Shown here: in pieces, positions 10,122-37,670 of the stretch | Position numbering within the stretch: position 1 is the first letter of the stretch | How the letters are laid out: each line of letters starts with the position of its first letter | IMG/VR virus record: IMGVR_UViG_3300035670_000056 | Coordinates: 64,001-115,275 of that record | Reading direction: 5' to 3' (one strand) | Source of the DNA: a virus | Taxonomy: Duplodnaviria > Heunggongvirae > Uroviricota > Caudoviricetes | DNA length: 51,275 nucleotides | Notes under the pieces: generated by a model | The model's input: the letters and a program-made list of their open reading frames with translations, nothing else | Told to the model about the DNA's origin: nothing | The model's database searches: none | Made by a program: the position numbers and the translations under genes

Positions 10122-10814
10122 CTAAGCGTGACACAACCAAGCTTGTATATTAAATCTCTTGTTTTCCCAAGACAAATCCTTCGGTGCTGTAATTTCACTA
10201 CAAGCGTGAAACACACTAGATGGAAAAATAGTCAATTGATTGCTGGTCAATGGTAACTTATATGTATTGTTCTTGTACATAAAGTACTGTTCTCCACCTT
10301 TCATTACACTTGGATCTTGTACCAATGTAAGCGCAAATGTAAATGCGTTTTGTTTGTTTACCTCTATGCCATCCCAAGTCATACCACTAACAGATAAATC
10401 ACGGTGCCAATTATAATAACCACCGTCGCCATAGTTGATGATATGATACTTATACAAATATCTGTATTTTGAATACGCGTTTAATTCTTCATTTTTAGCG
10501 TGGGTTAGAAAATCTAGTGTTCCTTGGTGAAAAATATATTTGCTTAGATTTGATATATAATAACCAAGATCTTGATTTTTTTCTTGGTTCTGTTTTTCAA
10601 ACGGAAGCCAAACATCTTGTCCAGTACACAATGGACTCAATGGTTCATCTGGATTATAAGCAAGTCCATCATTATAACCACCACTCCAATGTGGTACACC
10701 AAAATGCGGTTTTAATCTAATAAAGTCTTCATATAGTTTTTTTACATAATCTCTGGGAAGAAAATTATCAATTACTACAAGAGGAATGGTTTCGTGTTCT
10801 ACAGGAATATACAT
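10122..10814 (-). CDS. 2OG-Fe(II) oxygenase (prolyl-4-hydroxylase-like)
   Basis: YNWHRD, KGGE, FHAC and RFNIQAW give the HxD...H...R motif. Confidence 0.85.
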   Translation of the reverse strand: MYIPVEHETIPLVVIDNFLPRDYVKKLYEDFIRLKPHFGVPHWSGGYNDGLAYNPDEPLSPLCTGQDVWLPFEKQNQEKNQDLGYYISNLSKYIFHQGTLDFLTHAKNEELNAYSKYRYLYKYHIINYGDGGYYNWHRDLSVSGMTWDGIEVNKQNAFTFALTLVQDPSVMKGGEQYFMYKNNTYKLPLTSNQLTIFPSSVFHACSEITAPKDLSWENKRFNIQAWLCHA

Positions 10815-10827
10815 AACATTTATATTT

Positions 10828-11532
10828 TTAATTATACCAACCAGATACGCTAATTCTTTCTTTGTTTGAATTGTTGACCACCTGAGTTACACAATGAGGT
10901 GCAACTCCAGCGGTTACTTCAAAAATAACCAATTTATTAAAAGATGGATTAATAGCTCTAATGTTGTTTTTGTCTCTCAAATCCAAATATAACCCACCAA
11001 AATCAGGATTCCAATCTTTAGTTAAATGACACACAAATGCCAGCTTGCCATTTACATCATCTGTATGATTGCTTAAAAAACATTTTTCAGAATAACGACT
11101 TACAAATGTTTTATCACCCGTCGTAATATTTAGATCTGTTACACTATTGATAAAGTCTATCATTTCTTTACCGTTAAAGAAAGCCATTGTTTCATTATAA
11201 ACAGTGCAATTGAACTTTTCCATTACCCCAGGCATTGTTTTAAAGAAAAAGTAACTAAACAAATTGTTATCTCTGGCATTACAAGCGTGTTGATACGCTT
11301 GTTCCATAACATATCTGTTGGTAGGAACATTTTGCCACCATTCCCAATCACCTTCATATCTAAGAGATGGCATATATGTAGCACACCAATGTTCTTTATT
11401 CATCTCAGTTGTATAGTACTTGTGTAACTTTTCAGCCCATTCTTCTGTCAAAAAGTTATCTATTACAACCCGTCTGTTTTTGATAAATTCTTCTTTATAA
11501 GCAGAAGCATTGATATTTTTTATATTAATCAT
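10828..11532 (-). CDS. 2OG-Fe(II) oxygenase (proline hydroxylase-like)
   Basis: FLSNHTDD, WNPDFGG, PHCVTQV, RISVSGWY. Confidence 0.85.
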   Translation of the reverse strand: MINIKNINASAYKEEFIKNRRVVIDNFLTEEWAEKLHKYYTTEMNKEHWCATYMPSLRYEGDWEWWQNVPTNRYVMEQAYQHACNARDNNLFSYFFFKTMPGVMEKFNCTVYNETMAFFNGKEMIDFINSVTDLNITTGDKTFVSRYSEKCFLSNHTDDVNGKLAFVCHLTKDWNPDFGGLYLDLRDKNNIRAINPSFNKLVIFEVTAGVAPHCVTQVVNNSNKERISVSGWYN

Positions 11533-14645: not shown

Positions 14646-14679
14646 AAAAACCCCACCAAATTAATGATGGGGTTTTTTT
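14646..14679 (+). terminator. Intrinsic terminator, possibly bidirectional
   Basis: AAAAACCCCA...TGGGGTTTTTTT. Confidence 0.8.
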
Positions 14680-14746: not shown

Positions 14747-14890
14747 ATGGGAAGAAAACAAAAATATATCACAGATGAAGAAAAATTAAACGCACGCCGT
14801 GAAAGACAAATGCGTTATTATTTCAATAATCAACAAGTTAAAAAAGAAAAAGCATTAGAAAGATATTACAAAAAGAAAGGGGAAAAATGA
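14747..14890 (+). CDS. 47-aa basic mini-protein coupled to the GIY-YIG gene (not in ORF track)
   Basis: MGRKQKYITDEEKLNARRERQMRYYFNNQQVKKEKALERYYKKKGEK*; TATTTATT at 14736-14743; ATGA overlap with 14887. Confidence 0.7.
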   Translation: MGRKQKYITDEEKLNARRERQMRYYFNNQQVKKEKALERYYKKKGEK

Positions 14891-15693
14891 AACTCTATTT
14901 GATGATAAAAACACATAATATAACCGGCAAAAAATATTTATGCAAAAAACAAGCTAGAAGTGATGTAGAGGCTGTTAAATACACAGGATCAGGTCTTAAA
15001 TGGAAACCACATTTAAAAGAATTTGGCAAAAATTTTACTACTGAAATTTTGTTTGTTTGTCCAATTGAAAACAAGAAGGAATTTAGAAAAATAGCTATAG
15101 ATTATAGTTATAAACTTAATATTTTAAGTGATTCAAATTGGATGAATATGATATTAGAAGATGGCGGTGGTGGTTCAACATCAGAAACAAATGGTAGTAA
15201 AGGTAAAAAATGGATTTATAAAGATGAACAAAGAAAAAGTGTATGTCAAAGTGTATTGCAAGAGTATCTATCAAATGGTTGGACTCTTGGATTTCCAGAA
15301 AAATTTAAAAAAATCATTTCTGATTATAGCAAAGGAAAAATTCCGTGGAATAAAAATAAAAGTTTAAAACTTCCACATGAATATACATCAAGAATTTATA
15401 AAAAGAAATATAATACAAATAAAAATAAAAAGAATGAATATACTAGTGAACTTAGAAGTTTAATTGCAAAAGAATGTTTAAATAGACCAGAAGTATTATT
15501 GAAATTTAAACAACCAAGAAAATCCCCAATTACAGCAAAAAATGTAACCACGAATGAAATTAAAACTCTTGGTAGAAGACAATGGCATGATGTTCACCAA
15601 ATAGATTATAGGAAACTTTTGAAGGGATATACATCAAAAGGATGGAAGATGGTAGTGGTACCGGGACTTGAACCCGGAACTTCACCCTTATAA
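14887..15693 (+). CDS. GIY-YIG (Seg-like) homing endonuclease
   Basis: LYLMIKTHNITGKKYL...YTGSGLKWKPHLKEFG N-terminus. The C-terminus runs antisense into tRNA-Ile(UAU). Confidence 0.8.
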   Translation: MKLYLMIKTHNITGKKYLCKKQARSDVEAVKYTGSGLKWKPHLKEFGKNFTTEILFVCPIENKKEFRKIAIDYSYKLNILSDSNWMNMILEDGGGGSTSETNGSKGKKWIYKDEQRKSVCQSVLQEYLSNGWTLGFPEKFKKIISDYSKGKIPWNKNKSLKLPHEYTSRIYKKKYNTNKNKKNEYTSELRSLIAKECLNRPEVLLKFKQPRKSPITAKNVTTNEIKTLGRRQWHDVHQIDYRKLLKGYTSKGWKMVVVPGLEPGTSPL

Positions 15694-15726
15694 GGAGTGT
15701 ACTCTAACCACTTGAGTTATACCACT
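15650..15726 (-). tRNA. tRNA-Ile(UAU)
   Basis: AGTGGTA/TACCACT acceptor, CACTC-CTTATAA-GGGTG anticodon arm, TTCAAGT T-loop, encoded CCA. Confidence 0.92.
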
Positions 15727-15735
15727 ATCAAAAAA

Positions 15736-15815
15736 TGGAGCGGTGTCTCGGACTTATTTATTCACCGGCCTTCTCACTGGAATGTGAACGTGCTCCTCAT
15801 AGACACTAACACCGC
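15736..15815 (-). tRNA. Aberrant tRNA-Gly-like gene (UCC in a 6-nt loop, enlarged T-loop)
   Basis: GCGGTGT/ACACCGC acceptor, U73, CCA; TTCAC-ATTCCA-GTGAG arm; no TTC in the T-loop. Confidence 0.6.
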
Positions 15816-15823
15816 ATTAAAAT

Positions 15824-15896
15824 TGGAGCGGGTCCGAACTTTGCATTTCGCCTTTTAGTCTGGTAGACTAACGTGCTCTCTTTACACTTGACCCGC
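15824..15896 (-). tRNA. Non-canonical tRNA-Gly(ACC)
   Basis: GCGGGTC/GACCCGC acceptor, U73, CCA; TTAGT-CTACCAG-ACTAA arm; D-loop lacks GG and T-loop lacks TTC. Confidence 0.7.
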
Positions 15897-15905
15897 ATCT
15901 TAAAT

Positions 15906-16209
15906 CAAAATAGGAAGGACTAATGATTACCTCCAAGTTTCAGAATCACGACTGGTTATTCATCCACAGTCCACACGGTTAATTACTCCTTGTGTTAATG
16001 ACTGATGGGATTTGTTTTTCCCACAACGGGCTACGATTTATCATTTATATTTTAGCTACGATCCCGATACGCTCAAATTCAAGGTTGTACGACCTCAAAT
16101 TCTCCATAGATTTACCCTCCATAACTCTTACTCCAACCAATATACAACGTTTTTCAACGCCATATATTGTGCGTTACAACTAAACTAATCGTTGTTCCGC
16201 CACTATCTT
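15906..16209 (-). ncRNA. ~300-nt structured RNA with tmRNA-like topology and an internal short ORF
   Basis: Terminal AAGATAG/CTATTTT stem with G3.U70; GGAGG/CCTTC T-stem analogue; long-range helix 16192-16183 with 15957-15948; GAAA-capped hairpin. Confidence 0.6.
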
Positions 16210-16212
16210 AAA

Positions 16213-16225
16213 TTGTTAAAGAACT
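16213..16225 (-). promoter_or_regulatory. boxA antitermination site
   Basis: AGTTCTTTAACAA(TTTA) versus rrn boxA GCTCTTTAACAATTTA. Confidence 0.7.
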
Positions 16226-16227
16226 AT

Positions 16228-16355
16228 TGAAAAAGTTGATGGGACTTGAACCCACATACATAACGTCTATTTGTAGTTATATCGTTAATCGGCGGTTTTC
16301 CCCGTGTCTACAACTTTGGGTACCGACCTCCTGCTACGCCATTCGCTACAACCTT
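16228..16355 (-). ncRNA. 128-nt tRNA-like RNA with no standard anticodon arm
   Basis: AAGGTTG/CAACTTT acceptor, GTGGG-TTCAAGT-CCCAT T-arm, D-arm-like GCGAATGGCGTAGC, ends in TCA. Confidence 0.65.
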
Positions 16356-16368
16356 CTCAATTGAAAAA

Positions 16369-16646
16369 TGGTAGGCGTGAGTGGATTCGAACCACCGCTT
16401 TACAGATTTTCGTACCACTATAATTTTCATTACACATTTCTGTTTTGTGGTCTGGACTTTCTCTTCATCATAACATTTCTGTTTTAGATGTTTGCCGTTA
16501 AGTCTCTACACCTTCTCATTTCTGAGCTTGGCTCGGGATTGGCAGTTAAGCTTTCCCCGAATTTGACAAATTCTACTTTAGAGATTTCTCTCTAAGCACT
16601 CAATTTACGCTAAAGTCTGTTGACTCTTCCGCTGGTCTACACGCCC
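16369..16646 (-). tRNA. Intron-split tRNA; predicted anticodon UAA (Leu codon UUA) on a class I body
   Basis: Exons 16613-16646 (34 nt) and 16369-16410 (42 nt) join into a perfect 76-nt cloverleaf with CCA. Confidence 0.85.
16411..16612 (-). mobile_element. Group I intron (IC3-like, 202 nt, no ORF)
   Basis: P1 U.G pair (ACTT/GAGT); P2 TTAGAGA-GAAA-TCTCTAA; AAATTCGGGGAA, CAATCCCGAGCCAA, AAGGTGTAGAGACT and AAAGTCC core elements; terminal G. Confidence 0.92.
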
Positions 16647-16656
16647 ATTTAAATTA

Positions 16657-16669
16657 CTTACAAAGAACT
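16657..16669 (-). promoter_or_regulatory. boxA-like site
   Basis: AGTTCTTTGTAAG just downstream of the promoter at 16688-16715. Confidence 0.55.
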
Positions 16670-16687
16670 ATTACTTACTACTCTTTC

Positions 16688-16715
16688 ATCTTACCACATC
16701 TTACTTACTTGTCAA
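16688..16715 (-). promoter_or_regulatory. Sigma70-type promoter with extended -10
   Basis: TTGACA-16 nt-(TGG)TAAGAT. Confidence 0.75.
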
Positions 16716-16735
16716 ACAAGTTTTTCAGAAAAAAA

Positions 16736-16819
16736 TGGTAGGGATGGAGGGACTTGCACCCCCACGGTTTTACCCACGGCTTTTTGAGAGCCGCATGTCT
16801 TCTGTTCCATCACATCCCC
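16736..16819 (-). tRNA. tRNA-Leu(CAA)
   Basis: CGGCT-CTCAAAA-AGCCG arm, long variable arm, T-loop variant TGCAAGT, CCA. Confidence 0.9.
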
Positions 16820-16829
16820 GTTTTTAAAA

Positions 16830-16923
16830 TGGTGGTTCCGCCCGGATTCGAACCGAGACCGTGCTCAAATCTAGAGCTTATCAACGTTATAAGCGTTGCG
16901 TTCTACCGTTAAACTACGGAACC
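16830..16923 (-). tRNA. tRNA(UAU) with a long variable arm
   Basis: CAACG-CTTATAA-CGTTG arm, then ATAAGCTC-TAGATTT-GAGCACGGT; canonical T-arm; CCA; 94 nt. Confidence 0.85.
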
Positions 16924-16929
16924 ACTAAA

Positions 16930-17008
16930 TGGTAGCGGGGACAGGATTTGAACCTGTGACCTCCTGGTTATGAGCCAAGCGAGCTGATCCGGGCTGCTCC
17001 ACCCCGCA
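16930..17008 (-). tRNA. tRNA-Met(CAU), initiator-like
   Basis: U1:U72 mismatch and GCGGGGTGGAGCAGCCCGG fMet-like body; the anticodon stem has only two of the three consecutive G-C pairs. Confidence 0.85.
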
Positions 17009-17015
17009 AATTGTT

Positions 17016-17028
17016 TTGTTAAAGAACT
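17016..17028 (-). promoter_or_regulatory. boxA antitermination site
   Basis: AGTTCTTTAACAA downstream of the promoter at 17040-17067. Confidence 0.7.
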
Positions 17029-17039
17029 AACTAAAAATT

Positions 17040-17067
17040 ATCTTATCACACATTGATGTTTTGTCAA
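17040..17067 (-). promoter_or_regulatory. Sigma70-type promoter
   Basis: TTGACA-16 nt-(TGA)TAAGAT. Confidence 0.75.
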
Positions 17068-17164
17068 CATCTAAAATCGTCGCCGGTCTTTTAATTGGCG
17101 CTTTAATCCTCTGGTGGGGAACCAACTCAAGTGTCCTATTAATCGGGTATTCTCCGGGCGTAAA

Positions 17165-17236
17165 TGGTTGGAACGGTGGGTGCTGCCCCCACTTAAACTG
17201 GCTTATGAAACCTGTTTCTTTGCTGAAAGCGCTCCA
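17165..17236 (-). tRNA. Atypical tRNA(CAU)
   Basis: TGGAGCG/CGTTCCA acceptor, TTCATAA loop, T-loop GGCAGCA, D-loop without GG, CCA. Confidence 0.65.
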
Positions 17237-17243
17237 ATTAAAA

Positions 17244-17321
17244 TGGTTGCTGAAGCGTAGGAATCGCACCTACTTAATGAGTGGTTATGAGCCACCCCCA
17301 GATCTAACCTGCCGCCAGCTA
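17244..17321 (-). tRNA. Atypical tRNA(CAU)
   Basis: GGTGG-CTCATAA-CCACT arm, T-loop TGCGATT, bulged acceptor stem, CCA. Confidence 0.65.
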
Positions 17322-17326
17322 TTAAA

Positions 17327-17660
17327 TTGTGTTGGTTTCGATAATACACGGAGGTTTATTTCAACGAACTAGCGTTTTTTATTGACTCACAATTATCATT
17401 TTTTTCTCAGGTTTGTACGCTTTTCAGCGTTCCATCAATCTGATACTCTATTTTCCACCAACTAAAATTATCAAAAGAACAAATTAAAAATTGTGTTGGG
17501 TGTGTTTATTGAATACTCTATCCACCCAACAAACAGAGTATACCATACGCTAACCCCGCAACCAAGAAGTTTTTTAAGAGATCTTCCATACTCTAGGGGT
17601 GTTATGGTTTAACGCCCTCCACCAATCAGTTTTATCTTCTGGATAACTGATCAACCAGTA
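17327..17660 (-). ncRNA. Tandem of three related unassigned structured RNA elements
   Basis: Shared TTGG(G)TGGA and TAGAGTAT motifs; two end in CCAACACAATTT; several hairpins; no coding frame. Confidence 0.45.
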
Positions 17661-17661
17661 A

Positions 17662-17736
17662 TGGTAGAGCCACAGAGAATCGAACTCTGATTACTGCCTT
17701 GAAAGGGCGGTGTCCTGGCCGTTAGACGATGACTCC
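17662..17736 (-). tRNA. tRNA-Glu(UUC)
   Basis: Canonical cloverleaf, CTTTCAA loop, CCA. Confidence 0.93.
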
Positions 17737-17743
17737 GTTAAAT

Positions 17744-17819
17744 TGGTGGGACCGGACGGACTTGAACCGTCAACCAATTCGTTAAAAGCGAACTGCTCTG
17801 CCAATTGAGCTACGATCCC
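17744..17819 (-). tRNA. tRNA-Lys(UUU)
   Basis: Canonical cloverleaf, CTTTTAA loop, CCA. Confidence 0.95.
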
Positions 17820-17827
17820 ATTAAAAT

Positions 17828-17840
17828 TTGTTAAAGAACT
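17828..17840 (-). promoter_or_regulatory. boxA antitermination site
   Basis: AGTTCTTTAACAA between the promoter at 17853-17880 and tRNA-Lys. Confidence 0.7.
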
Positions 17841-17852
17841 TATTACAAAATC

Positions 17853-17880
17853 ATCTTACCACACATTCTTAACTTGTCAA
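17853..17880 (-). promoter_or_regulatory. Sigma70-type promoter
   Basis: TTGACA-16 nt-(TGG)TAAGAT. Confidence 0.75.
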
Positions 17881-17884
17881 GTAT

Positions 17885-17992
17885 TTCTTTGTTCTTTGTT
17901 GGTGACCCCCTTCGGTTAAAGGCCGAGGCAGTTCCGCCATACGTAGATGTTCTAGAGGAGTGCTTCTCCCACCGTGCTTAAAGAACAAAGAA
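17885..17992 (-). ncRNA. ~108-nt multi-branched structured RNA closed by a perfect 13-bp stem
   Basis: TTCTTTGTTCTTT/AAAGAACAAAGAA; internal GGTG/CACC, GGAG/CTCC, GGC/GCC and TCGG/CCGA stems. Confidence 0.55.
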
Positions 17993-18013
17993 TCGTTTAC
18001 TTACTACTTCTTT

Positions 18014-18041
18014 ATCTTAACATTCAATTTTCAAAGATCAA
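18014..18041 (-). promoter_or_regulatory. Sigma70-type promoter
   Basis: TTGATC-16 nt-TAAGAT. Confidence 0.55.
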
Positions 18042-18109
18042 GAACTTTCTTTCAAAAGTTTTGAGGTAAAATATAAATATAATCAAATATTAGTAAATTA
18101 CCGAAAAAG

Positions 18110-18185
18110 TGGTGTCCCCGCCAGGAATTGAACCTGGACCAGAGAGGTAGAAGCTCTCTGCTCTATCCATTTAAGCTACGAGGAC
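18110..18185 (-). tRNA. tRNA-Arg(UCU)
   Basis: GAGAG-CTTCTAC-CTCTC arm, canonical T-arm, CCA. Confidence 0.93.
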
Positions 18186-18192
18186 ACTGAGA

Positions 18193-18525
18193 TTACTTAC
18201 CGTTATCAAGTTCTTTACGAAGAGCTTTACCAAGTTCAGTTAGCTGAAACAGTGGTTCGCCGTCTTCGTTATGACCGGATACATATAATAGACCATCTTC
18301 TACCATTTTGTCAACTGTTTCTTTAACTTCTGACAACACAAGTTCGTTATAGATTACTTCTGCTTCAAACTCATTGCATTCAAGTTCTTTCATAATTACT
18401 TGAATACAAGCTTCTTTTTCCTCGACTTTGACTTGTTCTTCAACTTTATCAACGTCTAAGTTGGAACAATGACTGAGCAGATCATCGATTGATCCGGTAA
18501 AGTTGTCTGTGATATATTTATCCAT
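18193..18525 (-). CDS. Hypothetical acidic protein with a winged-helix-like C-terminus
   Basis: VDKMVEDGLLYVSG...FQLTELGK. Confidence 0.45.
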   Translation of the reverse strand: MDKYITDNFTGSIDDLLSHCSNLDVDKVEEQVKVEEKEACIQVIMKELECNEFEAEVIYNELVLSEVKETVDKMVEDGLLYVSGHNEDGEPLFQLTELGKALRKELDNGK

Positions 18526-18539
18526 TGTATGGTCTTTTA

Positions 18540-18830
18540 TTAGGCTACCCAGGCGAATTCTACGTTCTTGTAATAACGAACGGATCGCTTTGCGATGCTG
18601 TCAAGTGACTTACTGACATTGTGGGGAACACGAACATTCTTACCCCAACCATTTTCAGCTCGGCCTAGAGCAATAGCAAATCCCTTGCGTTTATCAAAAC
18701 GATCACCAGCCTTTGTATTGGTATAACTCCAACCAACACGAACTGAGTCATTAATAACTGTGGCTACCACATAACCACGGGGTTGACCATTGCGGTCACG
18801 TACCAACTGCTTGAGTGTAGTGTCTTTCAT
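18540..18830 (-). CDS. Hypothetical phage protein
   Basis: Likely start MKDTTLKQ at 18830; VGWS...GDRFDKRKGFAIALGRA. Confidence 0.55.
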   Translation of the reverse strand: MKDTTLKQLVRDRNGQPRGYVVATVINDSVRVGWSYTNTKAGDRFDKRKGFAIALGRAENGWGKNVRVPHNVSKSLDSIAKRSVRYYKNVEFAWVA

Positions 18831-18855
18831 ATAACTTGTTTTTAAATGTTTTGGT

Positions 18856-19038
18856 TTACTTTCCTTCGACGTATCGGAGTAGATCACGATTTGGTTCGAC
18901 CCCAATCTTTTCGTCTACAGTCTGCTTGATAGCAGCTTTGTAATAATACTGTGCGTATAGATCTGTTAGTTGTAGTTTGCGTTCAGCAATTTTTTCTTTG
19001 AGGTTATTAATAACTGTTTGAGTTGTCTTCGTCTTCAT
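18856..19038 (-). CDS. Hypothetical protein
   Basis: 60-aa ORF in a co-oriented run. Confidence 0.45.
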   Translation of the reverse strand: MKTKTTQTVINNLKEKIAERKLQLTDLYAQYYYKAAIKQTVDEKIGVEPNRDLLRYVEGK

Positions 19039-19162
19039 ACTTTGAATTGTAACGTGATGGCTTTACTTCAGTATTTTGCCATTTCTTGTTAGTCTTTTTA
19101 TTTGCTTTGTTGCGCCAATTTCCTTCGTTGCGTGAACGACGATCTTTGAATGACTTTCCCAT
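19007..19162 (-). CDS. 51-aa basic/acidic mini-protein (not in ORF track)
   Basis: MGKSFKDRRSRNEGNWRNK...YEDEDNSNSY*. Confidence 0.55.
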   Translation of the reverse strand: MGKSFKDRRSRNEGNWRNKANKKTNKKWQNTEVKPSRYNSKYEDEDNSNSY

Positions 19163-19191
19163 ATACTACTTTTAAAAATAAATAGTGTTAG

Positions 19192-19224
19192 AAAAAGGGA
19201 TTAATAAGTTTTTTTATTAACCCC
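19192..19224 (-). terminator. Intrinsic terminator
   Basis: GGGGTTAATAA/TTATTAATCCC stem followed by a U-run. Confidence 0.65.
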
Positions 19225-19240
19225 TCAATCTTTGAACTGT

Positions 19241-19519
19241 TTAATTTGCAGAAGTCTGAGACGATTCAGCAGTAGTAGTTGTTGACTCAACAGCAGGAGT
19301 TGCGTCGTAGGTATACACGATACTTGGCTTACCACGCTTACCGGTCTTCTGTGATCCACTAATCTTGTATCGACCAGCGGTTACATTACGCTTAACGTGC
19401 ATCCGAATTGTCGGAGCCTTAACGTTGGCGTTGATGTTAATCAGATCAACAATAGTGAAATTGCGATCAGTGATTTCGTTTACTGCGGTTGCCTTACGGC
19501 CTGTCTTGTTCTTGTTCAT
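19241..19519 (-). CDS. Small basic winged-HTH-like DNA-binding protein
   Basis: APTIRMHVKRNV...KTGKRGKPSIVYTY; own promoter at 19559-19587. Confidence 0.5.
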   Translation of the reverse strand: MNKNKTGRKATAVNEITDRNFTIVDLININANVKAPTIRMHVKRNVTAGRYKISGSQKTGKRGKPSIVYTYDATPAVESTTTTAESSQTSAN

Positions 19520-19558
19520 ATTTTTTATTTTTTGTTAATGTTAACCGACTACAAATTC

Positions 19559-19587
19559 ATCTTACCACATACTTTAAACAATGTCAA
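19559..19587 (-). promoter_or_regulatory. Sigma70-type promoter
   Basis: TTGACA-17 nt-(TGG)TAAGAT; no boxA downstream. Confidence 0.75.
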
Positions 19588-19597
19588 CGTTCTTTTT

Positions 19598-19807
19598 TTA
19601 AATCTTTCGAGCTGATTCAAAAACCAGAGCATTGGTGAGATCACCAAAGCCATAACGCTTGCCATTTCGATCAAACGTAGTGTCGCTGCTCTTGCTGTAA
19701 TAACCAACGTTCTCACCATTAGGACCGTGAGCGTAAATTACGTTGCCACTGTCCTTTACATATCCAATTCGGACGTTCTTACCATCCATAATATATTTTG
19801 TACTCAT
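19598..19807 (-). CDS. Hypothetical beta-hairpin repeat protein
   Basis: 69-aa ORF with G..VGY-type repeats. Confidence 0.5.
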   Translation of the reverse strand: MSTKYIMDGKNVRIGYVKDSGNVIYAHGPNGENVGYYSKSSDTTFDRNGKRYGFGDLTNALVFESARKI

Positions 19808-19816
19808 ATTTTGTTT

Positions 19817-20359
19817 TTAGTTGTTATCAATAAAGTTACGATAAAATCCCATCACAATTCCACTGGTAGTACCCACATTAAGTGAACGTACACTACCATA
19901 CGCAGGAATGGTTACAATATAATCAGCATTGTCAAGAATATAATCACTCAACCCACTCTTTTCTTCACCAAAGACAAACATTGGCTTATCTACACCAGTA
20001 AATACCCAGTGGTTAAAAATAGATACAGTCTTGTCACTATACTTGGGAATGTTGTTTTCTACTGCAATTAGTGTATAACCATTGTCATTCACATACGCAA
20101 CAAAGTCTTGTTCTGTCTTGATGTGACTAAGATCGGTGTAATGATGAGTGCCAACAGTACCACGGCGATCCCACTGCTTACTACCACCAACATACATTGC
20201 TTCCTTGAAGCCAAAGAAGTTGGCGTTGCGTACTAGAGTGGATAGATTAAAGTCACCGTTAACGTGCATCATAGCAACACCAGCGTCAATACAGGTGTCC
20301 TTACAATACGACTTGATATCGTCCACACTCTTGTTCTTCAGATGATCCAAAACATTCAT
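19817..20359 (-). CDS. SPOUT-family (TrmH/TrmL-like) RNA 2'-O-methyltransferase
   Basis: NLSTLVRNANFFG, VFGEEKSGLS and IPAYGSVRSLNV SPOUT motifs. Confidence 0.88.
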   Translation of the reverse strand: MNVLDHLKNKSVDDIKSYCKDTCIDAGVAMMHVNGDFNLSTLVRNANFFGFKEAMYVGGSKQWDRRGTVGTHHYTDLSHIKTEQDFVAYVNDNGYTLIAVENNIPKYSDKTVSIFNHWVFTGVDKPMFVFGEEKSGLSDYILDNADYIVTIPAYGSVRSLNVGTTSGIVMGFYRNFIDNN

Positions 20360-22096: not shown

Positions 22097-22337
22097 TTAG
22101 AAACTCCTTTAATTGTTTTTGGTTTTCTGTATTTAAAATAACGAAATCAGACCATGGTTTACCATATCTAAGTATTTGCCAGCACCATCTTAGTCTTTCT
22201 GTCCAACATAATGTTCTACCTTTAAGTCCTCTTTCAAACAAACTCAAAGACACTTCATTTTCATCTTTAAATTTTTCTACAAGAAGACCGTGTTCATAAC
22301 AGTCACAAATCAAAAAAATTGAATCTTGATCTTTCAT
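22083..22337 (-). CDS. Hypothetical protein
   Basis: ORF in a tightly packed run. Confidence 0.5.
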   Translation of the reverse strand: MKDQDSIFLICDCYEHGLLVEKFKDENEVSLSLFERGLKGRTLCWTERLRWCWQILRYGKPWSDFVILNTENQKQLKEFLNECK

Positions 22338-23323
22338 AATTGTGTTTTAATCCAGTTAAATGTTTTTTCAATACCAATTTTAAGAGGTTGTGATGGTTCC
22401 CAGTTCATCTTTTCTCTATATAAACTATTGTCTGATTTACGACCTCTTACACCAGTTGGACATTTAAAGCCATATTTTTGTTTAAAGTTCTCTCCATCAA
22501 TGTTTTTGACTTTGATGTTTTTATTTGTCAAGTCAATTGCCATTTGAGCCAATTCATTGATTGATACCATTTCTTCGGAACCAATGTTCACTGGTCCTAA
22601 AAATTCATCTTGTTTCATAAACCTCATTACAGCTTCTACGCATTCATCTATGTACAAAAACGATCTGGTCTGTAGACCGTCACCCCACACTTCCAATTCT
22701 GCACCGTCTGAAGTTTCCAATGCTTTTCTACACATTGCAGCAGGCGCTTTTTCTTTTCCACCTTTATATGTGCCACAGGGACCAAAGATGTTATGAAATC
22801 TAGCAATTCTCACATCTAGTTTATGATTTCTATTATATGCTAAATATAATCTTTCACTAAACAACTTTTCCCAACCATATTCACTATCTGGTTCAGCTGG
22901 ATATGCATCTTTTTCAGCACATTTGGGGTTGTTTGGATCCATTTGATTATATTCTGGATATGCGCATGCGCTTGAAGAATAAAACACTTTTTTTACTTTC
23001 TTTTTAACACATTCGTGTACCACATTTAAATTGATCAAAGCAGAATTATGCATTACATTTGCATCGTTTTGACCAGTAAAAATATACAATGCACCACCCA
23101 TATCTGCGGCCAATTGATACACTTCATCTGCATTTTCAGTAATTACTGATTTTACTACGTTTACATCAGTAAGATCGCCAATTACAAATTCATCTGCATA
23201 ATTATGATATTCATTATTTTTAATATCAACGCCGCGAACCCAGTAACCTTCTTCTTTTAGACGTTTTATTAAATGTCCACCTATAAATCCCCCTCCGCCT
23301 AAAACGATTGCTATTTTTTTCAT
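22334..23323 (-). CDS. GDP-mannose 3',5'-epimerase-like NAD-dependent epimerase
   Basis: GGGGFIG, QLAADMGG, SSACAYPE, YGWEK, GGKEKAPAAMCRK. Confidence 0.85.
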   Translation of the reverse strand: MKKIAIVLGGGGFIGGHLIKRLKEEGYWVRGVDIKNNEYHNYADEFVIGDLTDVNVVKSVITENADEVYQLAADMGGALYIFTGQNDANVMHNSALINLNVVHECVKKKVKKVFYSSSACAYPEYNQMDPNNPKCAEKDAYPAEPDSEYGWEKLFSERLYLAYNRNHKLDVRIARFHNIFGPCGTYKGGKEKAPAAMCRKALETSDGAELEVWGDGLQTRSFLYIDECVEAVMRFMKQDEFLGPVNIGSEEMVSINELAQMAIDLTNKNIKVKNIDGENFKQKYGFKCPTGVRGRKSDNSLYREKMNWEPSQPLKIGIEKTFNWIKTQL

Positions 23324-23326
23324 AAC

Positions 23327-23914
23327 TTACATTTTTAAAAATTTTTCCAGTTCCCAGATCTTATAAGATATCCAATATGACACTGTGTGAATTTTGTTAC
23401 AAACAATCTTTATTGCTTTGTTATAAGGTTTACCAAACAATATGTAAAATTTTGTTTTTTCAAAGTTTCGTCTCTTTGTCCAGTACTCAATATCCTTACG
23501 ATGTTGTTCTTTACGTTCACTATTATCAGTAGCGGTAAATTCTATCACTTTAGCTCCAGTAACTTTACCATCTACAAATATAACATCATATTCAATCCAA
23601 TAATCATATGTTTCATTAGTATCACTATCATACGCATACAGTCTGACTGTATCTGTTATAGGGAAAATTTGTTGCCACCAAGTTTTGATTTCTTTACGAG
23701 TTGGTAATTTTTCAATTAAACTTTTAGCATTTGGATTACCGTCTGTATATTCATACTCAGCACAATGTAACCAAAGAGTACCGTCTTCACGGATTTCATA
23801 TACGTCCATTGCATTATCAAAGTCTTTGGTTTGATACTTGTTGTTACAATAACCCTTCGGATCTTCTGGTAAAGGAAGTGGGTATTTACATACTACATCA
23901 TCAAACATTCCCAT
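23327..23914 (-). CDS. Hypothetical phage protein
   Basis: MGMFDDVVCKYPLP...YQTKDFD. Confidence 0.55.
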   Translation of the reverse strand: MGMFDDVVCKYPLPLPEDPKGYCNNKYQTKDFDNAMDVYEIREDGTLWLHCAEYEYTDGNPNAKSLIEKLPTRKEIKTWWQQIFPITDTVRLYAYDSDTNETYDYWIEYDVIFVDGKVTGAKVIEFTATDNSERKEQHRKDIEYWTKRRNFEKTKFYILFGKPYNKAIKIVCNKIHTVSYWISYKIWELEKFLKM

Positions 23915-23917
23915 AAA

Positions 23918-24151
23918 TTAATTTCCTCTATTTTTGTATTCTTCTATGTCGAGTAAGAAATTGCGAAATGCGGCGTGATCATCAAGGTCCGCTTGAGACA
24001 ACTTCGATAGATTATAATCAGCAATATACTCCAAAAGTACACCAACATAATAGCCTGGAATGGTAATATTCTTACCATCAAACTTTAGGTCATCGTGTTG
24101 AATAATGATCGGATTGTTCACTTTGTCTTTAATAGTTAGTTCTTTTTCCAT
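23918..24151 (-). CDS. Hypothetical protein
   Basis: Preceded by TTGACA-17-TAGGAT (24158-24186). Confidence 0.55.
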   Translation of the reverse strand: MEKELTIKDKVNNPIIIQHDDLKFDGKNITIPGYYVGVLLEYIADYNLSKLSQADLDDHAAFRNFLLDIEEYKNRGN

Positions 24152-24227
24152 ACTTGTATCCTAGTTTAACTATCAAACTGTGTCAATATAAAAAATTATT
24201 TCTGAATATAAAAAATACGTATATTTG

Positions 24228-25070
24228 ATGAAAGGAATTATTCTAGCTGGAGGTACTGGTAGCAGATTATATCCGTTGACTAGTACAATAAATAAACAGT
24301 TGTTGCCTGTTTACGACAAGCCAATGATTTATTATCCATTCTGCACATTATTGTCTTGTGGTATAAAAGACTTTTGCATTATTTCTTCCCCAGAGTATTT
24401 ACCTTCTTATGAAAAATTGTTTGGGGATGGAAGTCAACTGGGTATTAAAATTACTTATAAAGTACAGTACAAACCCAGAGGTATAGCAGAAAGTTTTATT
24501 ATAGCTGAAGAATTTATAAGTAATGATTCAGTTGCGCTTATACTAGGTGATAATATATTTCACGGAATGCCTAGAGTCAAGCCCATACTTCACGGAGCTG
24601 TTATATTTGGTTATGAAGTTAGTGATCCAAGATCATATGGAGTTATTGAGTTTGATAGTGATAACAACGTAATAAGCATAGAAGAAAAACCCACTGAACC
24701 AAAAAGCAATTATGCGGTACCTGGCTTATATTTTTATGATAAGAACGTGGTTGAATATGCTAAAACACTTAAACCATCTGCAAGAGGTGAAATTGAAATA
24801 ACTGATTTGAACTTAATATATCTTGACAACAAGCAGTTGACCGCTGTAAAATTTGCTAAAGGCACAGCGTGGTTAGATGCTGGAAGTGCTGAATCATTAT
24901 TTGAAAGTAGTGCTTATGTTCAAGCTATTCAATCAAGACAAGGAATTAAAATTGGTTGTATTGAAGAAGAGTGCTTCAAGCGCAAATATATAAGCAAAGA
25001 GCAGCTTAAAGCGCTTATGGAAAAATTACCCAACAGCGAATATAAAAAATATTTAAATAAATTATTATGA
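24228..25070 (+). CDS. rmlA: Glucose-1-phosphate thymidylyltransferase
   Basis: GIILAGGTGSRLYP, KQLLPVYDKPMIYYP, LILGDNIF, RGEIEIT. Confidence 0.95.
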   Translation: MKGIILAGGTGSRLYPLTSTINKQLLPVYDKPMIYYPFCTLLSCGIKDFCIISSPEYLPSYEKLFGDGSQLGIKITYKVQYKPRGIAESFIIAEEFISNDSVALILGDNIFHGMPRVKPILHGAVIFGYEVSDPRSYGVIEFDSDNNVISIEEKPTEPKSNYAVPGLYFYDKNVVEYAKTLKPSARGEIEITDLNLIYLDNKQLTAVKFAKGTAWLDAGSAESLFESSAYVQAIQSRQGIKIGCIEEECFKRKYISKEQLKALMEKLPNSEYKKYLNKLL

Positions 25071-25933
25071 TTATACTATTTGGATCAAGCGGTTATATTG
25101 GAAGTGAATTTAAAAAGCAATTAGCTGAATTAAAGCTACCTGTTTTTCTTTGGCCAAATGCAAGAAATACAACATTTGCTGACTTGGAAAAATGGTATGA
25201 AGACACAGGATACCCTATTATAGGCGCTGTAATAAATGCAGCTGGGTACACTGGCAAACCAAATGTTGATGCTTGTGAATTAAATAAAGAAGCTACCGTA
25301 CACGGTAATATTGTGTGGCCACAAATACTAACTGATTGGTGTATGTTGAATGATATACCTTTGGCGCATGTTTCCAGTGGATGTATATATGAAGGTAGAC
25401 GAGCTGATGGTGCTCCTTTTACTGAAGAAGATGTGCCAAACTTTAGTTTTGCGCATAATAATTGTAGTTTTTATAGTGGCACCAAAGTAATAGGTGAACA
25501 AGTAGTGAAGAAGTGGGAAAAACATTACATTTGGAGACTTAGAATACCATTTGAAGAATTTGATAATTCAAGAAACTACATAAGCAAAATCTTAAAATAC
25601 GATAAGCTTTTGGATGCGGAAAATAGTGTAAGTAATAAACAAGAGTTTGTAAGTGCTTGTATTCAAACCATAACCAAAAACGTACCTTATGGCACATACA
25701 ATATTACCAATAGTGGTTTTATCACAACCAAACAAATCACTGAAAAGTTTAAGCAAACAATTGCAAAAGATAAAGTCTTTAATTTTGTTGAAGAATGTGA
25801 ATTTTATAAAAATATTGTTAAAACTCCCCGTTCAAATTGCGTAATGAGCAATGAAAAGTTGTTGTCAACCGGCATCAAAATGAGAACTGCAGATGAAGCT
25901 TTTGACTATTGTTTAAATAATTGGACACTATGA
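25067..25933 (+). CDS. RmlD-fold reductase of the NRS/ER (epimerase-reductase) type
   Basis: GSSGYIG, AAGYTGKPNVDACE, SSGCIY, SFYSGTK. Confidence 0.75.
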   Translation: MIILFGSSGYIGSEFKKQLAELKLPVFLWPNARNTTFADLEKWYEDTGYPIIGAVINAAGYTGKPNVDACELNKEATVHGNIVWPQILTDWCMLNDIPLAHVSSGCIYEGRRADGAPFTEEDVPNFSFAHNNCSFYSGTKVIGEQVVKKWEKHYIWRLRIPFEEFDNSRNYISKILKYDKLLDAENSVSNKQEFVSACIQTITKNVPYGTYNITNSGFITTKQITEKFKQTIAKDKVFNFVEECEFYKNIVKTPRSNCVMSNEKLLSTGIKMRTADEAFDYCLNNWTL

Positions 25934-26886
25934 ATATACTAGTAACAGGAGGAAGTGGGTTTATAGGCAGCCACTTCATTGAAGAAGTCATTAAACGTGA
26001 GGATGTAGAGAAGGTATACAATATTGATTGTAATACTTACGCTTCGAATAAAAACCTTCCATTTCAAAACAGTACTAGATATCAAAAATTAACTTTAGAC
26101 ATTTCAACTCCAAACTTTTCTGACTCAAAGAAATATATTGACTCATTGAATTTAGATTATGTAATTCACTTTGCAGCTGAGTCACACGTGGATAATTCTA
26201 TCAAATCCCCCAAAAGATTTATAGAAACAAATATTGGTGGAACTTTCAATTTGTTGGAGATATTCAAAGATACAAATATCAAAAAGTTTATTCATATTTC
26301 TACAGATGAAGTATTTGGTAGTTTAAGTTACAAGGAAAGAGAATTTAATACAGACAGTCCATATCGTCCAAATAGTCCGTATGCAGCGAGTAAAGCAGCT
26401 AGTGATTTATTGGTAAGAAGTTATGTTAAGACTTATAATTTTCCAGCTATAATTACAAATTGCAGCAACAATTTTGGACCAAGACAGTTTGCAGAAAAGC
26501 TTATTCCGGTTTGTATTGACAAATTGAAAAAGAAAGAAACGATTCCACTATACGGAAATGGGTTGAATATAAGAGATTGGATTTATGTAAAAGACCACGT
26601 TAATGCGATTATATGCGTTATGCAAGATGGTATTGTTGGAAAACAGTATTTGATAGGGGGTAACAACGAAATATCTAATATACAACTAATACATTCGATT
26701 GTGAGTGTATACGAAACCATCACTAAACAAAAAGTTGACTGGGAATGGTTTGAATATGTAACTGACCGTAAAGGACACGATTTTAGATATGCGGTAGATA
26801 CCAAAGACTTTGAAATGGAGTTTCCTCAATTTAACACAACAGATTTTGACAAAGCTATTTTAGAAACGGTGAAATCATATTTATAA
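25930..26886 (+). CDS. rmlB: dTDP-glucose 4,6-dehydratase
   Basis: GGSGFIG, HFAAESHVDNS, STDEVFG, YAASK, NCSNNFGP. Confidence 0.93.
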   Translation: MNILVTGGSGFIGSHFIEEVIKREDVEKVYNIDCNTYASNKNLPFQNSTRYQKLTLDISTPNFSDSKKYIDSLNLDYVIHFAAESHVDNSIKSPKRFIETNIGGTFNLLEIFKDTNIKKFIHISTDEVFGSLSYKEREFNTDSPYRPNSPYAASKAASDLLVRSYVKTYNFPAIITNCSNNFGPRQFAEKLIPVCIDKLKKKETIPLYGNGLNIRDWIYVKDHVNAIICVMQDGIVGKQYLIGGNNEISNIQLIHSIVSVYETITKQKVDWEWFEYVTDRKGHDFRYAVDTKDFEMEFPQFNTTDFDKAILETVKSYL

Positions 26887-36554: not shown

Positions 36555-37670
36555 ATGAAATATCTTATGGAAATATATAATATAAATGATGTGGTTTCTT
36601 TCACAGAAAACAAAAAAGTTGCATTTGTGACGGGTGTTACTGGTCAAGATGGTAGTCTTATGGTAGATTATCTACTTAAAAATACAGACTACTTTGTAGT
36701 GGGGGGTGCTAGAAGATTGAGTATCAAAAACCACGAAAATATTAGACATTTGGAAAATAATCCCAGATTTAAATTGGTAAACTTTGATCTAAGTGATGCT
36801 CATAGTATTAGCAAAATAGTAGAGAAGTTAAAACCAGATTATTTTATCAATTTAGCTGCACAAACGTTTGTAGGTTCTAGCTGGGACTTTCCAGCACAAA
36901 CTTGGGAATGTAATACAACTGGTGTGATTCATATATTAGAAGCAATTAGACAACACAAACCTTCTTGTAGATTTTACAACGCTGGCAGTAGCGAAGAATA
37001 TGGCAATGTAGCATACACACCACAAGACGAAAATCATCCAGCAAAACCACGTAGTCCATATGGAGCGAGTAAATCAGCTGCAAGACAATTGGTTAAAGTG
37101 TACAGAGAATCCTATAATTTGTATGCGGTACAAGGTTTATTGTTTAATCACGAAGGTATTAGAAGAGGTGAAGAATTTGTCACACGTAAGATTACAAAGG
37201 GTGTAGCTAGAATCAAGAAAGCTATATCTGAAGGCAAATCATTTGAACCGATTGAATTGGGAAATGTAAAAGCCAGAAGAGATTGGAGTGATGCTGAAGA
37301 TTTTGTTGATGGTATCTGGAAAATGTTAAATCAAACACATCCTAATGAATATGTTCTTTCTAGTAATGAAACACATACCATTGCGGAATTTGTATGGTTT
37401 GCTTTTAAATCCGCTGATATTGAAGGTGCTTGGCACGGAGAAGCAGAAAGATCGGAATTTAGTATCACCACAAAAGATGCAATTAAATATGAACCCGTAA
37501 CATCTGTTTTAGTCAAAATCAATCCCAAATTCTATAGACCAGCTGAAGTAGATTTGTTATTGGGTGATAGTACCAAAGCTAGAAATGAATTGAAATGGGA
37601 ACCAAAAACATCATTTGAACAACTTGTAGACAAGATGGTTGTCAATGATTTAAAACAAATAGGACTATGA
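36555..37670 (+). CDS. gmd: GDP-mannose 4,6-dehydratase
   Basis: VTGVTGQDGS, LAAQTFV, AGSSEEYG, PRSPYGASK, LFNHEG, RDWSDAEDFV. Confidence 0.92.
   Translation: MKYLMEIYNINDVVSFTENKKVAFVTGVTGQDGSLMVDYLLKNTDYFVVGGARRLSIKNHENIRHLENNPRFKLVNFDLSDAHSISKIVEKLKPDYFINLAAQTFVGSSWDFPAQTWECNTTGVIHILEAIRQHKPSCRFYNAGSSEEYGNVAYTPQDENHPAKPRSPYGASKSAARQLVKVYRESYNLYAVQGLLFNHEGIRRGEEFVTRKITKGVARIKKAISEGKSFEPIELGNVKARRDWSDAEDFVDGIWKMLNQTHPNEYVLSSNETHTIAEFVWFAFKSADIEGAWHGEAERSEFSITTKDAIKYEPVTSVLVKINPKFYRPAEVDLLLGDSTKARNELKWEPKTSFEQLVDKMVVNDLKQIGL

Follow-up and report, generated by a model that had tools for sequence, protein, structure and literature searches.

A phage operon of transfer RNAs and conserved non-coding RNAs with probable boxA antitermination signals

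Which RNAs does a phage make from 2536 nucleotides (nt) of DNA that hold no convincing coding gene, and how might so long an untranslated stretch be transcribed? We addressed this question in a 51,275-nt window, the whole stretch of DNA analysed here (positions 64,001 to 115,275 of IMG/VR record IMGVR_UViG_3300035670_000056), in which an array of RNA genes occupies 18185-15650 on the minus strand. Phage transfer RNA (tRNA) clusters are usually taken as simple codon supplements. For this array we hold, at somewhat better than even chances, that it is a T4-like stable-RNA operon, antiterminated through boxA, that supplies twelve working tRNAs together with conserved non-coding RNAs. The system combines known kinds, joining a T4-type tRNA and stable-RNA region with boxA signals of the type seen in ribosomal RNA (rRNA) operons (rrn) and in phage T7.

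RNA elements make up 2055 of the 2536 nt (81%), all on the minus strand (Table 1). They comprise six conventional tRNAs; six unusual ones, namely a long-arm UAU tRNA, an intron-split UAA tRNA and the cloverleaves C, D, H and I; the tRNA-like RNAs F and G; and elements A, B1, B2, B3 and E. By default, ARAGORN reported seven tRNAs (Arg-UCU, Lys-UUU, Glu-UUC, Met-CAU, the 94-nt Ile-UAU, Leu-CAA and Ile-UAU), and Rfam the same seven plus a group I intron, with C, D, H and I lying below the default or threshold of these programs. A first-pass annotation made from the letters alone had described six conventional and six aberrant tRNAs, two larger tRNA-like RNAs and further structured elements on a single strand, without a convincing coding gene in 15650-18185. 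ARAGORN, Rfam and the alignments bear out its count of tRNAs; the other elements are also present and kept in relatives, and internal open reading frames (ORFs) are not open in relatives and match no family. The longest such ORF (103 amino acids (aa), 17061-17372, plus strand) is closed in relatives and has no PHROG match, and in one clade AUG UAG breaks the frame of 25 codons that lies inside G; with both unconserved, a coding reading of the array was rejected.

Relatives were gathered through a 110-aa gene just upstream of the array, which gave 16 IMG/VR and 39 metagenome loci, mostly from freshwater lakes. The layout is kept in more than 50 related phage loci, whose arrays are syntenic yet mosaic, with many indels. 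A megablast of the array against the phage collection returned no match, and a distant DNA search of the same collection returned generic tRNA-Met matches and the intron alone, which indicates that this collection holds no cultured relative. A virion protein places the phage near T4-like myoviruses and cyanophages. The source, with a GC content of 34%, is described here as a T4-like, uncultured freshwater phage.

Transcription of the array can be traced to four internal sigma70-type promoters (18041, 17880, 17067 and 16715, all minus), with TTGACA or TTGATC, a 16-nt spacer and an extended -10 element of the form TGnTAAGAT. Across 16-39 distinct relatives the -35 and -10 hexamers show little or no change whereas the spacers between them differ, and because the hexamers are kept against this variation we take the promoters to be real, as the first-pass annotation had proposed. 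A conserved word, AGTAGTAAGTAA, lies 5-7 nt after the -10 element of two of them (18005-17995 and 16680-16670, minus). The tail of B1 contains a conserved promoter-like TTGGTT-17-TATACT, which falls within the alignment to a known RNA motif (wcaG, below) and was not counted as a promoter. The word GTTCTTTA was considered as a T4 MotA box and rejected by eye, having no -10 element at the required spacing of 11-13 base pairs (bp).

Three exact rrn-type boxA sites and three weaker GTTCTTT sites punctuate the array. The exact word, GTTCTTTAACAA, is a perfect match to GYTCTTTAANA, the gammaproteobacterial boxA consensus obtained by functional mutagenesis (PMC5725501). Five matches to this consensus occur in the window, where 0.65 would be expected; three of the five lie in the array, in sense orientation. 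In relatives every consensus match is on the array strand and within the arrays. GTTCTTT itself occurs at 1.9 per kb on the sense strand of the arrays, 0.04 per kb on the antisense strand and 0.28 per kb elsewhere. It follows the -10 hexamer of each array promoter by 12-27 nt (starts being predicted from sequence), and no boxA lies downstream of the promoter at 19587, which is of the same type and serves protein genes. The sites at 16668, 17480 and 17986 match GTTCTTT alone. Throughout the relatives the motif is kept even where its position shifts.

Comparison with bacterial rrn operons provides further support. A 14-mer, GTTCTTTAACAATT, stands at leader or spacer boxA positions in Shewanella, a Pseudomonadales metagenome-assembled genome (MAG), a gammaproteobacterial MAG, Photobacterium and a Methylophilaceae MAG, in loci where Rfam placed 16S or 23S rRNA beside it on the same strand; the genome scan behind this comparison returned mostly chance matches (an estimated 4,400 or so expected), and the loci checked were chosen partly for their contig-end position. 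The 14-mer is thus shared with rrn leaders and spacers of several beta- and gammaproteobacteria. Given these results, the array sites are very probably genuine boxA, at which Nus binding and antitermination would be expected, and the rRNA-style antiterminated operon proposed at first pass fits the sequence evidence (exact consensus, sense strand only, rrn 14-mer). We found no paper on boxA in phage tRNA arrays, within an incomplete coverage of the literature.

These same words could instead be a spacer or a processing signal, such as an RNase E or RNase P leader determinant, or a leader copied along with duplicated promoter modules. Such a role would explain the constant 11-22 nt to the next mature 5' end, the sites that precede G and B3 without a promoter, the copy that forms part of the helix flanking A, the paralogy of the promoter modules with their common word AGTAGTAAGTAA, and the failure to see any boxB or boxC. 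It leaves the exact match to a mutagenesis-derived consensus, the 14-mer at leader and spacer boxA of real rrn operons, and the retention of the motif at shifted positions without an explanation. The boxA of rrn spacers likewise lacks its own promoter, and T7 sets a precedent for boxA on a transcript other than rRNA. Clustered regularly interspaced short palindromic repeat (CRISPR) arrays provide another, on untranslated transcripts. We therefore consider a pure spacer or processing role unlikely, and boxA remains our preferred assignment.

As boxA, the sites resemble those of rrn operons in their gammaproteobacterial consensus sequence (PMC5725501), their sense orientation, their promoter-proximal and internal placement, and the long, untranslated and structured transcript that they mark; element A even shares the precursor helix around a mature RNA. 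They differ from rrn in the absence of a boxB hairpin or boxC, in lying 11-22 nt from mature 5' ends, in a cargo of viral tRNAs and small RNAs, and in that Nus binding is putative. The T7 early leader carries a perfect rrn-type boxA, GCTCTTTAACA, behind the host-polymerase promoters A1-A3, as in the array; that of T7 is single and precedes translated early genes, whereas those of the array are repeated in a non-coding operon.

Beyond its transcription signals, the array is distinguished by four tRNAs, C, D, H and I, with an unusual elbow. None was found by ARAGORN in default mode or matched RF00005 at the Rfam threshold; the mitochondrial mode of ARAGORN recovered C, D and H, and all four form cloverleaves in the alignments. 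The canonical elbow is replaced: the T-loops read UGCGAUU (C), GGCAGCA (D) and a UGC type (H and I) in place of canonical UUC, GG is missing from the D-loops of C, D and H, and the T-stems of H and I are shortened to 3-4 bp. A G at T-loop position 55 is found in C, H and I, and also in Leu-CAA. Other features of working tRNAs are retained. All four encode CCA; the anticodon loops of C (CUCAUAA), D (UUCAUAA) and H (CUACCAG) have 7 nt, U33 and a purine at 37; and H and I carry the glycine identity set G1-C72, C2-G71, G3-C70 and U73.

Pairing in these four tRNAs is kept up through compensatory changes. In C and D, all 390 of 390 alignment cells pair, with compensatory changes in 15 of 39 pairs; no shuffle out of 500 matched this, and slid controls paired at 37-49%. 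H and I have 41 predicted pairs, eight of them compensatory and none broken. A, B1, B2, H and G are at least as well conserved as the canonical tRNAs, with identities of 85-100% for A (44 loci), 90-98% for B2 (37), 82-93% for B1 (31), 92-99% for H (21) and 79-97% for G (15); the long-arm UAU tRNA is 100% identical in 18 loci, and E, F and B3 are almost invariant in 3-5 loci each. The aberrant elements, then, are present in relatives rather than decayed, with pairing kept by compensatory changes in C/D, H/I and G. One could still regard them as functionless, decaying tRNA pseudogenes and recombination scars, as the mosaic arrays with their many indels, the few loci with E, F and B3, and a T-loop insertion in the I of the window might suggest. 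Covariation largely refutes this explanation, and together with the conservation of A, B1, B2, H and G it leaves decay extremely unlikely.

The elbow of D is not confined to this phage group. A search of IMG/VR with its T-arm as a 16-mer returned 95 stretches, and at least 37 distinct complete-cloverleaf contexts beyond the D orthologues bear this arm. They cover 12 anticodons, including GUC, UUC, GCC, UUU and the amber-reading CUA, and retain an encoded CCA (33 of 37), U33 (35 of 37) and CAG[CT] in the D-loop (35 of 37). The combination of a GTGGG-GGCAGCA-CCCAC T-arm with a CAGC or CAGT D-loop occurs on viral contigs of up to 434 kb (IMG/VR loci L185-L277), and default ARAGORN found none of 74 D-type T-arm contexts. 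With so many cloverleaf contexts and anticodons, D is, as judged from sequence, one example of a tRNA design that is widespread in viruses and whose alternative elbow co-varies. D shares the T-loop GGCAGCA and the CAGC D-loop with these other viral tRNAs, while H and I differ from them in their T-stem of 3-4 bp, and I in its 6-nt anticodon loop. A 2024 paper describes all known bacterial tRNAs as canonical (PMC11551756). On alternative-elbow phage tRNAs we found no paper, again within incomplete coverage.

Array anticodons, those of the aberrant members included, match the favourite codons of the phage: AGA (60% of Arg codons), AAA (73% of Lys), GAA (86% of Glu), AUA (37% of Ile), UUA and UUG (69% of Leu together) and GGU and GGA (81% of Gly together). 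Because their anticodons match preferred codons, the sequence evidence argues that C, D, H and I are adaptors rather than decoys. The competing proposal is that the aberrant tRNAs and tRNA-like RNAs act as decoys or sponges for host tRNA-targeting nucleases, as aminoacyl donors or as ribosome modulators. Phage tRNAs that escape anticodon nucleases are known, and several features would suit this proposal: standard finders miss C, D, H and I, whose universal elbow nucleotides are replaced; a single array has three CAU genes; a loop of A, CCUUUAA, resembles the anticodon loop of tRNA-Lys(UUU) with C33; the ends of A are closed by a helix and would not be chargeable as transcribed; and F and G are tRNA-shaped yet have no CCA. 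For a decoy, however, there would be no need to preserve every cloverleaf helix by compensatory changes, nor to keep the 7-nt loops, U33, purine 37, discriminators and CCA seen in C, D and H, or the Gly-type acceptor set of H and I. The match to the commonest codons, and the same elbow with 12 anticodons in other phages, amber-reading CUA included, also point to decoding. We thus regard the decoy proposal as improbable. For the six aberrant tRNAs, the first-pass suggestion that about half of the array is not standard translation machinery found no support, given splicing to an intronless allele (below), covariation, CCA and codon match. Decoy or regulatory roles may still apply to A, B, E, F and G alone.

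Table 1. Features of the array and its surroundings, in the order of array transcription (positions in the window)
Feature	Positions	Strand	Remarks
SpoU/SPOUT 2'-O-ribose RNA methyltransferase, nearest TrmH (Gm18)	19817-20359	-	Pfam SpoU_methylase PF00588, 82 bits, 4.4e-23
Fifth promoter, same type, for protein genes	19559-19587	-	TTGACA-17-TGTGGTAAGAT; no boxA after
tRNA-Arg(UCU), canonical	18110-18185	-	a few nt past stop codon of ORF 18193-18525
Promoter of element A	18014-18041	-	TTGATC-N16-TGTTAAGAT; hexamers invariant or nearly so in 31 distinct relatives
Element A	17885-17992	-	74-nt core 17900-17973; flanking helix 17980-17992 with 17885-17897 (13 bp)
Promoter before tRNA-Lys and tRNA-Glu	17853-17880	-	
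boxA GTTCTTTAACAA	17828-17839	-	20 nt ahead of tRNA-Lys
tRNA-Lys(UUU), canonical	17744-17819	-	ARAGORN, Rfam
tRNA-Glu(UUC), canonical	17662-17736	-	ARAGORN, Rfam
B1, three-hairpin RNA, wcaG-motif-like (RF01761)	17551-17659	-	
B2, 8-bp hairpin	17495-17530	-	GUUGGGUG/CACCCAAC, then ACAAUUUUU; z-score -3.0
Degenerate boxA-like GTTCTTTTGAT	17470-17480	-	ahead of B3, no promoter
B3, larger member of B frame	17324-17462	-	4 loci, almost invariant; tentative
C, cloverleaf, anticodon CAU	17244-17319	-	T-loop UGCGAUU (G55); D-loop without GG; A73-CCA encoded
D, cloverleaf, anticodon CAU	17165-17236	-	T-loop GGCAGCA; 4-nt D-loop CAGC; A73-CCA encoded; z-score -2.85
E	17078-17160	-	closed by CGCCCGG/CCGGCG; 4-5 loci, little variation; z-score -0.84; tentative
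Promoter before tRNA-Met, long-arm Ile and Leu(CAA)	17040-17067	-	
boxA GTTCTTTAACAA	17016-17027	-	19 nt ahead of tRNA-Met
tRNA-Met(CAU), canonical	16930-17008	-	ARAGORN, Rfam
tRNA(UAU), 94 nt, class II long variable arm	16830-16923	-	A73; 7/5 acceptor/T geometry
tRNA-Leu(CAA), class II	16736-16819	-	lowest Rfam score, 43.4 bits; T-loop UGCAAGU (G55)
Promoter before tRNA(UAA)	16688-16715	-	
boxA-like GTTCTTTGTAAG	16657-16668	-	off consensus past first 7 bases
tRNA(UAA), class I body, intron-split	16369-16646	-	
F, tRNA-shaped RNA, ~127 nt	16229-16358	-	paired ends, canonical T-arm, no encoded CCA
boxA GTTCTTTAACAA, without own promoter	16213-16224	-	15 nt ahead of G
G, structured RNA, ~304 nt	15906-16209	-	no CCA
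H, Gly-type cloverleaf	15824-15896	-	anticodon loop CUACCAG (ACC); 4-bp T-stem, loop with UGC; D-loop without GG; z-score -3.5
I, paralogue of H	15736-15815	-	loop AUUCCA (UCC); U73-CCA; T-loop insertion
tRNA-Ile(UAU), canonical body	15650-15726	-	ARAGORN, Rfam
Homing-endonuclease-like gene, free-standing	14887-15693	+	convergent with array
47-aa lysine-rich ORF	14747-14890	+	overlaps nuclease start
Bidirectional intrinsic terminator, perfect 13 bp	14646-14677		between structural operon and nuclease/array block

The long-arm UAU tRNA and the split UAA tRNA complete the set of twelve. The former may be charged with isoleucine or with leucine. The latter contains a group I intron, placed by Rfam (RF00028) at 16430-16622 with 74.8 bits against a gathering score of 50. 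The intron spans 16411-16612 (202 nt, without an ORF) between U34 and A35; its 5' splice site follows CUU, and its 3' site the terminal G. Spliced in silico, the tRNA has 76 nt and is identical to an intronless allele (L008:11549-11624), and because of this identity the insertion can be assigned to U34/A35, the classical tRNA-Leu(UAA) position. This position, the absence of an ORF and a score above the Rfam Intron_gpI threshold are shared with the tRNA-Leu(UAA) intron of cyanobacteria and plastids; unlike there, the tRNA body is class I with a 5-nt variable loop, rather than the class II body of leucine tRNAs, and the intron is found in some relatives only (seven related loci). The slot that corresponds to 16369-16646 varies among L006, L010 and L016: it is filled by the 76-nt class I tRNA(UAA), which may or may not contain the intron, or by a class II tRNA-Leu(UAA) of 88 nt. 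An uncultured 735-kb phage, LR756501 (L182:520-900), has a class II tRNA-Leu(UAA) with a 79%-identical group I intron at U34/A35, preceded by a boxA-like word, AGTTCTTTGAAAAAA, which we take to be of the Gram-positive rrn type.

Among the non-coding RNAs, A and G are new and strongly conserved. The core of A is nearly invariant and has no Rfam match. Its last hairpin, which has the 7-nt loop CCUUUAA, shows two compensatory pairs. The helix that flanks it (13-18 bp), with GUUCUUU in its 5' strand, is kept in all 31 of 31 variants despite differing sequence, and the flanking duplex has a mean energy of -16.0 kcal/mol against -7.1 for shuffles, by analogy resembling the stems of rRNA precursors. 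The case for A is made by its conservation and flanking helix and not by its own folding energy; single-sequence folding energies give no support for A, E, F, C or B3. A 9-mer, UGGCGGAAC, is common to A (17940-17948) and G (16192-16200, both minus) and conserved in them; it is the D-arm word of class II tRNA-Leu genes, and its presence in A and G may reflect common descent or a shared binding site.

The first two hairpins of B1 covary strongly and lie at the places expected from the wcaG model, to which B1 aligns over its full length. It scored 23.1 bits in the window and 30.7-33.8 bits in seven relatives, below the gathering score of 42. Like wcaG RNA, B1 has three hairpins and a conserved UGGUG junction; unlike it, B1 lies within a tRNA array and not in the 5' untranslated region (UTR) of sugar or high-light genes. 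These sequence features make B1 a probable, divergent relative of wcaG RNA that occupies a new context. Its core words UGGUGGA and UAGAGUAU recur in B2 and B3, and the stable hairpin of B2 is followed by a U-run.

F and G are both built like tRNAs. The inner 87 nt of F score 25 bits against the tRNA model. G, without a match in Rfam, has 80 predicted pairs, ten of them compensatory and almost none broken. Read from end to end, G is laid out like a tRNA. An acceptor-like stem, whose third pair is G.U, is followed by the D-arm word UGGCGGAAC known from class II tRNA-Leu and then by a long capped hairpin; a domain of roughly 200 nt takes the place of the variable arm, and a T-arm-like hairpin with an 11-nt loop comes last. 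This architecture recalls transfer-messenger RNA (tmRNA) or another alanine-charged RNA of trans-translation, and the paired ends with G.U at the third pair, the T-arm-like hairpin abutting the 3' strand, the long helix leading into an internal multi-hairpin domain and tmRNA-like objects reported nearby by ARAGORN at low stringency all agree with it. No tmRNA model matched in Rfam even at E up to 10, however, and ARAGORN found none by default; G has no encoded CCA, its T-loop is non-canonical, two extra hairpins separate the acceptor strand from the long helix, and tag frames vary in length and end between relatives, without the usual hydrophobic or Ala-Ala ending. We accordingly rejected G as a tmRNA, an identity that we deem very unlikely.

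From the genes, the conserved promoters and boxA sites, the covariation and the intron boundaries, we infer Nus action, processing, charging and decoding along the following lines. Host RNA polymerase would initiate at the four promoters, which would be early ones, and the transcript would carry boxA or its GTTCTTT variant about 6-30 nt from each start, and again before G and B3. There, boxA would recruit NusB-NusE and other host Nus factors, which would protect the long untranslated transcript from termination by Rho and may help it to fold, much as for rRNA operons and the T7 early leader. Processing would yield about 19 RNAs, with A freed from its flanking helix in the manner of an rRNA precursor at a putative RNase III site. 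The twelve tRNAs would supply the codons preferred by the phage, largely A/U-ending (AGA, AAA, GAA, AUA, UUA, UUG, GGU, GGA and AUG), with C, D, H and I working through an alternative D-loop/T-loop elbow common in viral tRNAs. The intron of tRNA(UAA) would be mobile and self-splicing, and a GIY-YIG-fold endonuclease (HNH in relatives) would move in and out of the array.

Several observations weigh against this scheme. On the side of antitermination, two of the six GTTCTTT sites are off consensus and one lies within the helix flanking A, the distance to the next mature 5' end would equally suit a processing signal, no boxB or boxC partner was seen, and near the tRNA cluster of T4 the sense strand carries no consensus boxA. 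On the side of decoding, the anticodon loop of I has 6 nt (AUUCCA), the I of the window and that of L055 have a 6-nt T-loop insertion (AAUAAA) compared with most relatives, H has the anticodon ACC, which bacteria avoid, and the acceptor stem of C is imperfect. Among the other RNAs, the folds of A, E, F and B3 are no more stable than those of shuffled sequence, and few relatives have E (4-5 loci), F (3) or B3 (4). Finally, the relatives are closely related, and the compensatory changes come from few independent events.

The closest known counterpart is the tRNA region of T4 (eight tRNAs, segB, and rnaC and rnaD for species 1 and 2 RNAs), along with the boxA leaders of T7 and rrn. Both have a one-strand tRNA cluster for A/U-ending codons, with Arg-UCU, Ile, Leu and Gly in common, small stable RNAs at the distal end, and a free-standing homing endonuclease of GIY-YIG type at the cluster or within it (SegB in T4, PMC2330249). 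F has the same topology as species 1 RNA, with paired ends and a canonical T-arm beside the 3' strand; this topology is all that is common, and rnaC and rnaD have no sequence similarity to array elements. The array is set apart from T4 by four promoters within it, tRNAs with the alternative elbow, a group I intron, an RNA of 304 nt and another of 74 nt that is flanked by a helix.

The array was described at first pass as flanked by a GIY-YIG gene, abutting one end, and a SPOUT methylase 1.6 kb beyond the other. Both genes are present, and the methylase is a conserved neighbour; their link to the array proved loose, with a sporadic nuclease and a methylase 1.6 kb away. The nuclease ORF, whose final 14 codons are antisense to tRNA-Ile, has no Pfam (PF01541 absent even at E up to 10), PHROG or NCBIfam match. 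Over its C-terminal 130 aa it shares 80% identity with the DNA-binding tails of GIY-YIG and NUMOD3 proteins, and the AlphaFold model of its N-terminal part (predicted local distance difference test score of about 90) has the I-TevI catalytic domain as its top three PDB matches (template modeling score 0.63-0.69, root-mean-square deviation 2.5-3.3 A, probability 0.99-1.0, but E 0.03-0.1). Set by eye against the catalytic Tyr, Tyr, Arg, His, Glu and Asn of I-TevI, its family shows no variation at Y17, N87 and E91 and carries a WKxH word, and the equivalent of the catalytic Arg is variable. On this model the ORF is a divergent GIY-YIG-fold homing endonuclease, as first proposed, without a Pfam domain match. 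With the gene in three relatives only, it is sporadic and mobile. In relative L012 (9414-9958, minus), a homologue of the adjoining 47-aa ORF stands elsewhere in the array and overlaps the beginning of a gene for an unrelated HNH nuclease; the small ORF may be a leader or partner that mobile nuclease cassettes have in common.

The best NCBIfam and PDB matches of the SpoU methylase are to TrmH, at 41.8 bits against an equivalog cut-off of 227. The gene is syntenic in about 30 relatives at 78-98% identity. It lies upstream of the promoter at 19587, which drives the intervening small ORFs, and a functional link with the array is plausible. A bolder proposal would join several of these elements: A, seen as a tRNA-like body under a helix cap whose sole open loop copies the anticodon loop of tRNA-Lys(UUU) with C33, and G, tRNA-shaped but without an anticodon, as purpose-built tRNA mimics (A titrating or inhibiting a host lysine-tRNA anticodon nuclease, G engaging a tRNA-binding enzyme or the ribosome), B1 and the hairpin and U-run of B2 as a switch on transcription of the distal half of the array, and a SpoU enzyme specialised for alternative-elbow tRNAs. 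We consider this combination quite unlikely.

At the other end of the block, the bidirectional terminator is likely to end both array read-through and the convergent structural operon. Elsewhere, the window encodes a clamp-loader-like ATPase and a lysozyme-domain protein, typical cargo of large phages; a nucleotide-sugar gene cluster at 22334-26886 and 36555-37670, with a nucleoside triphosphate transferase and RmlD-like and GDP-mannose-dehydratase-like epimerases; and two 2-oxoglutarate-Fe(II) oxygenases at 10122-11532.

As read from its sequence, this phage appears to borrow the rRNA antitermination signal of its host for a viral non-coding operon, which would add a new setting to those known for boxA, namely rRNA, lambda-type phages, T7 and CRISPR arrays. 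Some phage tRNAs break the 'universal' elbow rule, yet selection maintains them, and because standard annotation misses such tRNAs, the decoding capacity of phages is under-counted. The array also adds new conserved RNAs (A and G) and, with B1, what would be the first non-UTR context for the orphan wcaG motif. For decades, to our knowledge, no function has been assigned to the T4 species 1 and 2 RNAs; this second group of stable RNAs embedded in an array, which can be aligned among relatives, would now offer comparative leverage on that question.

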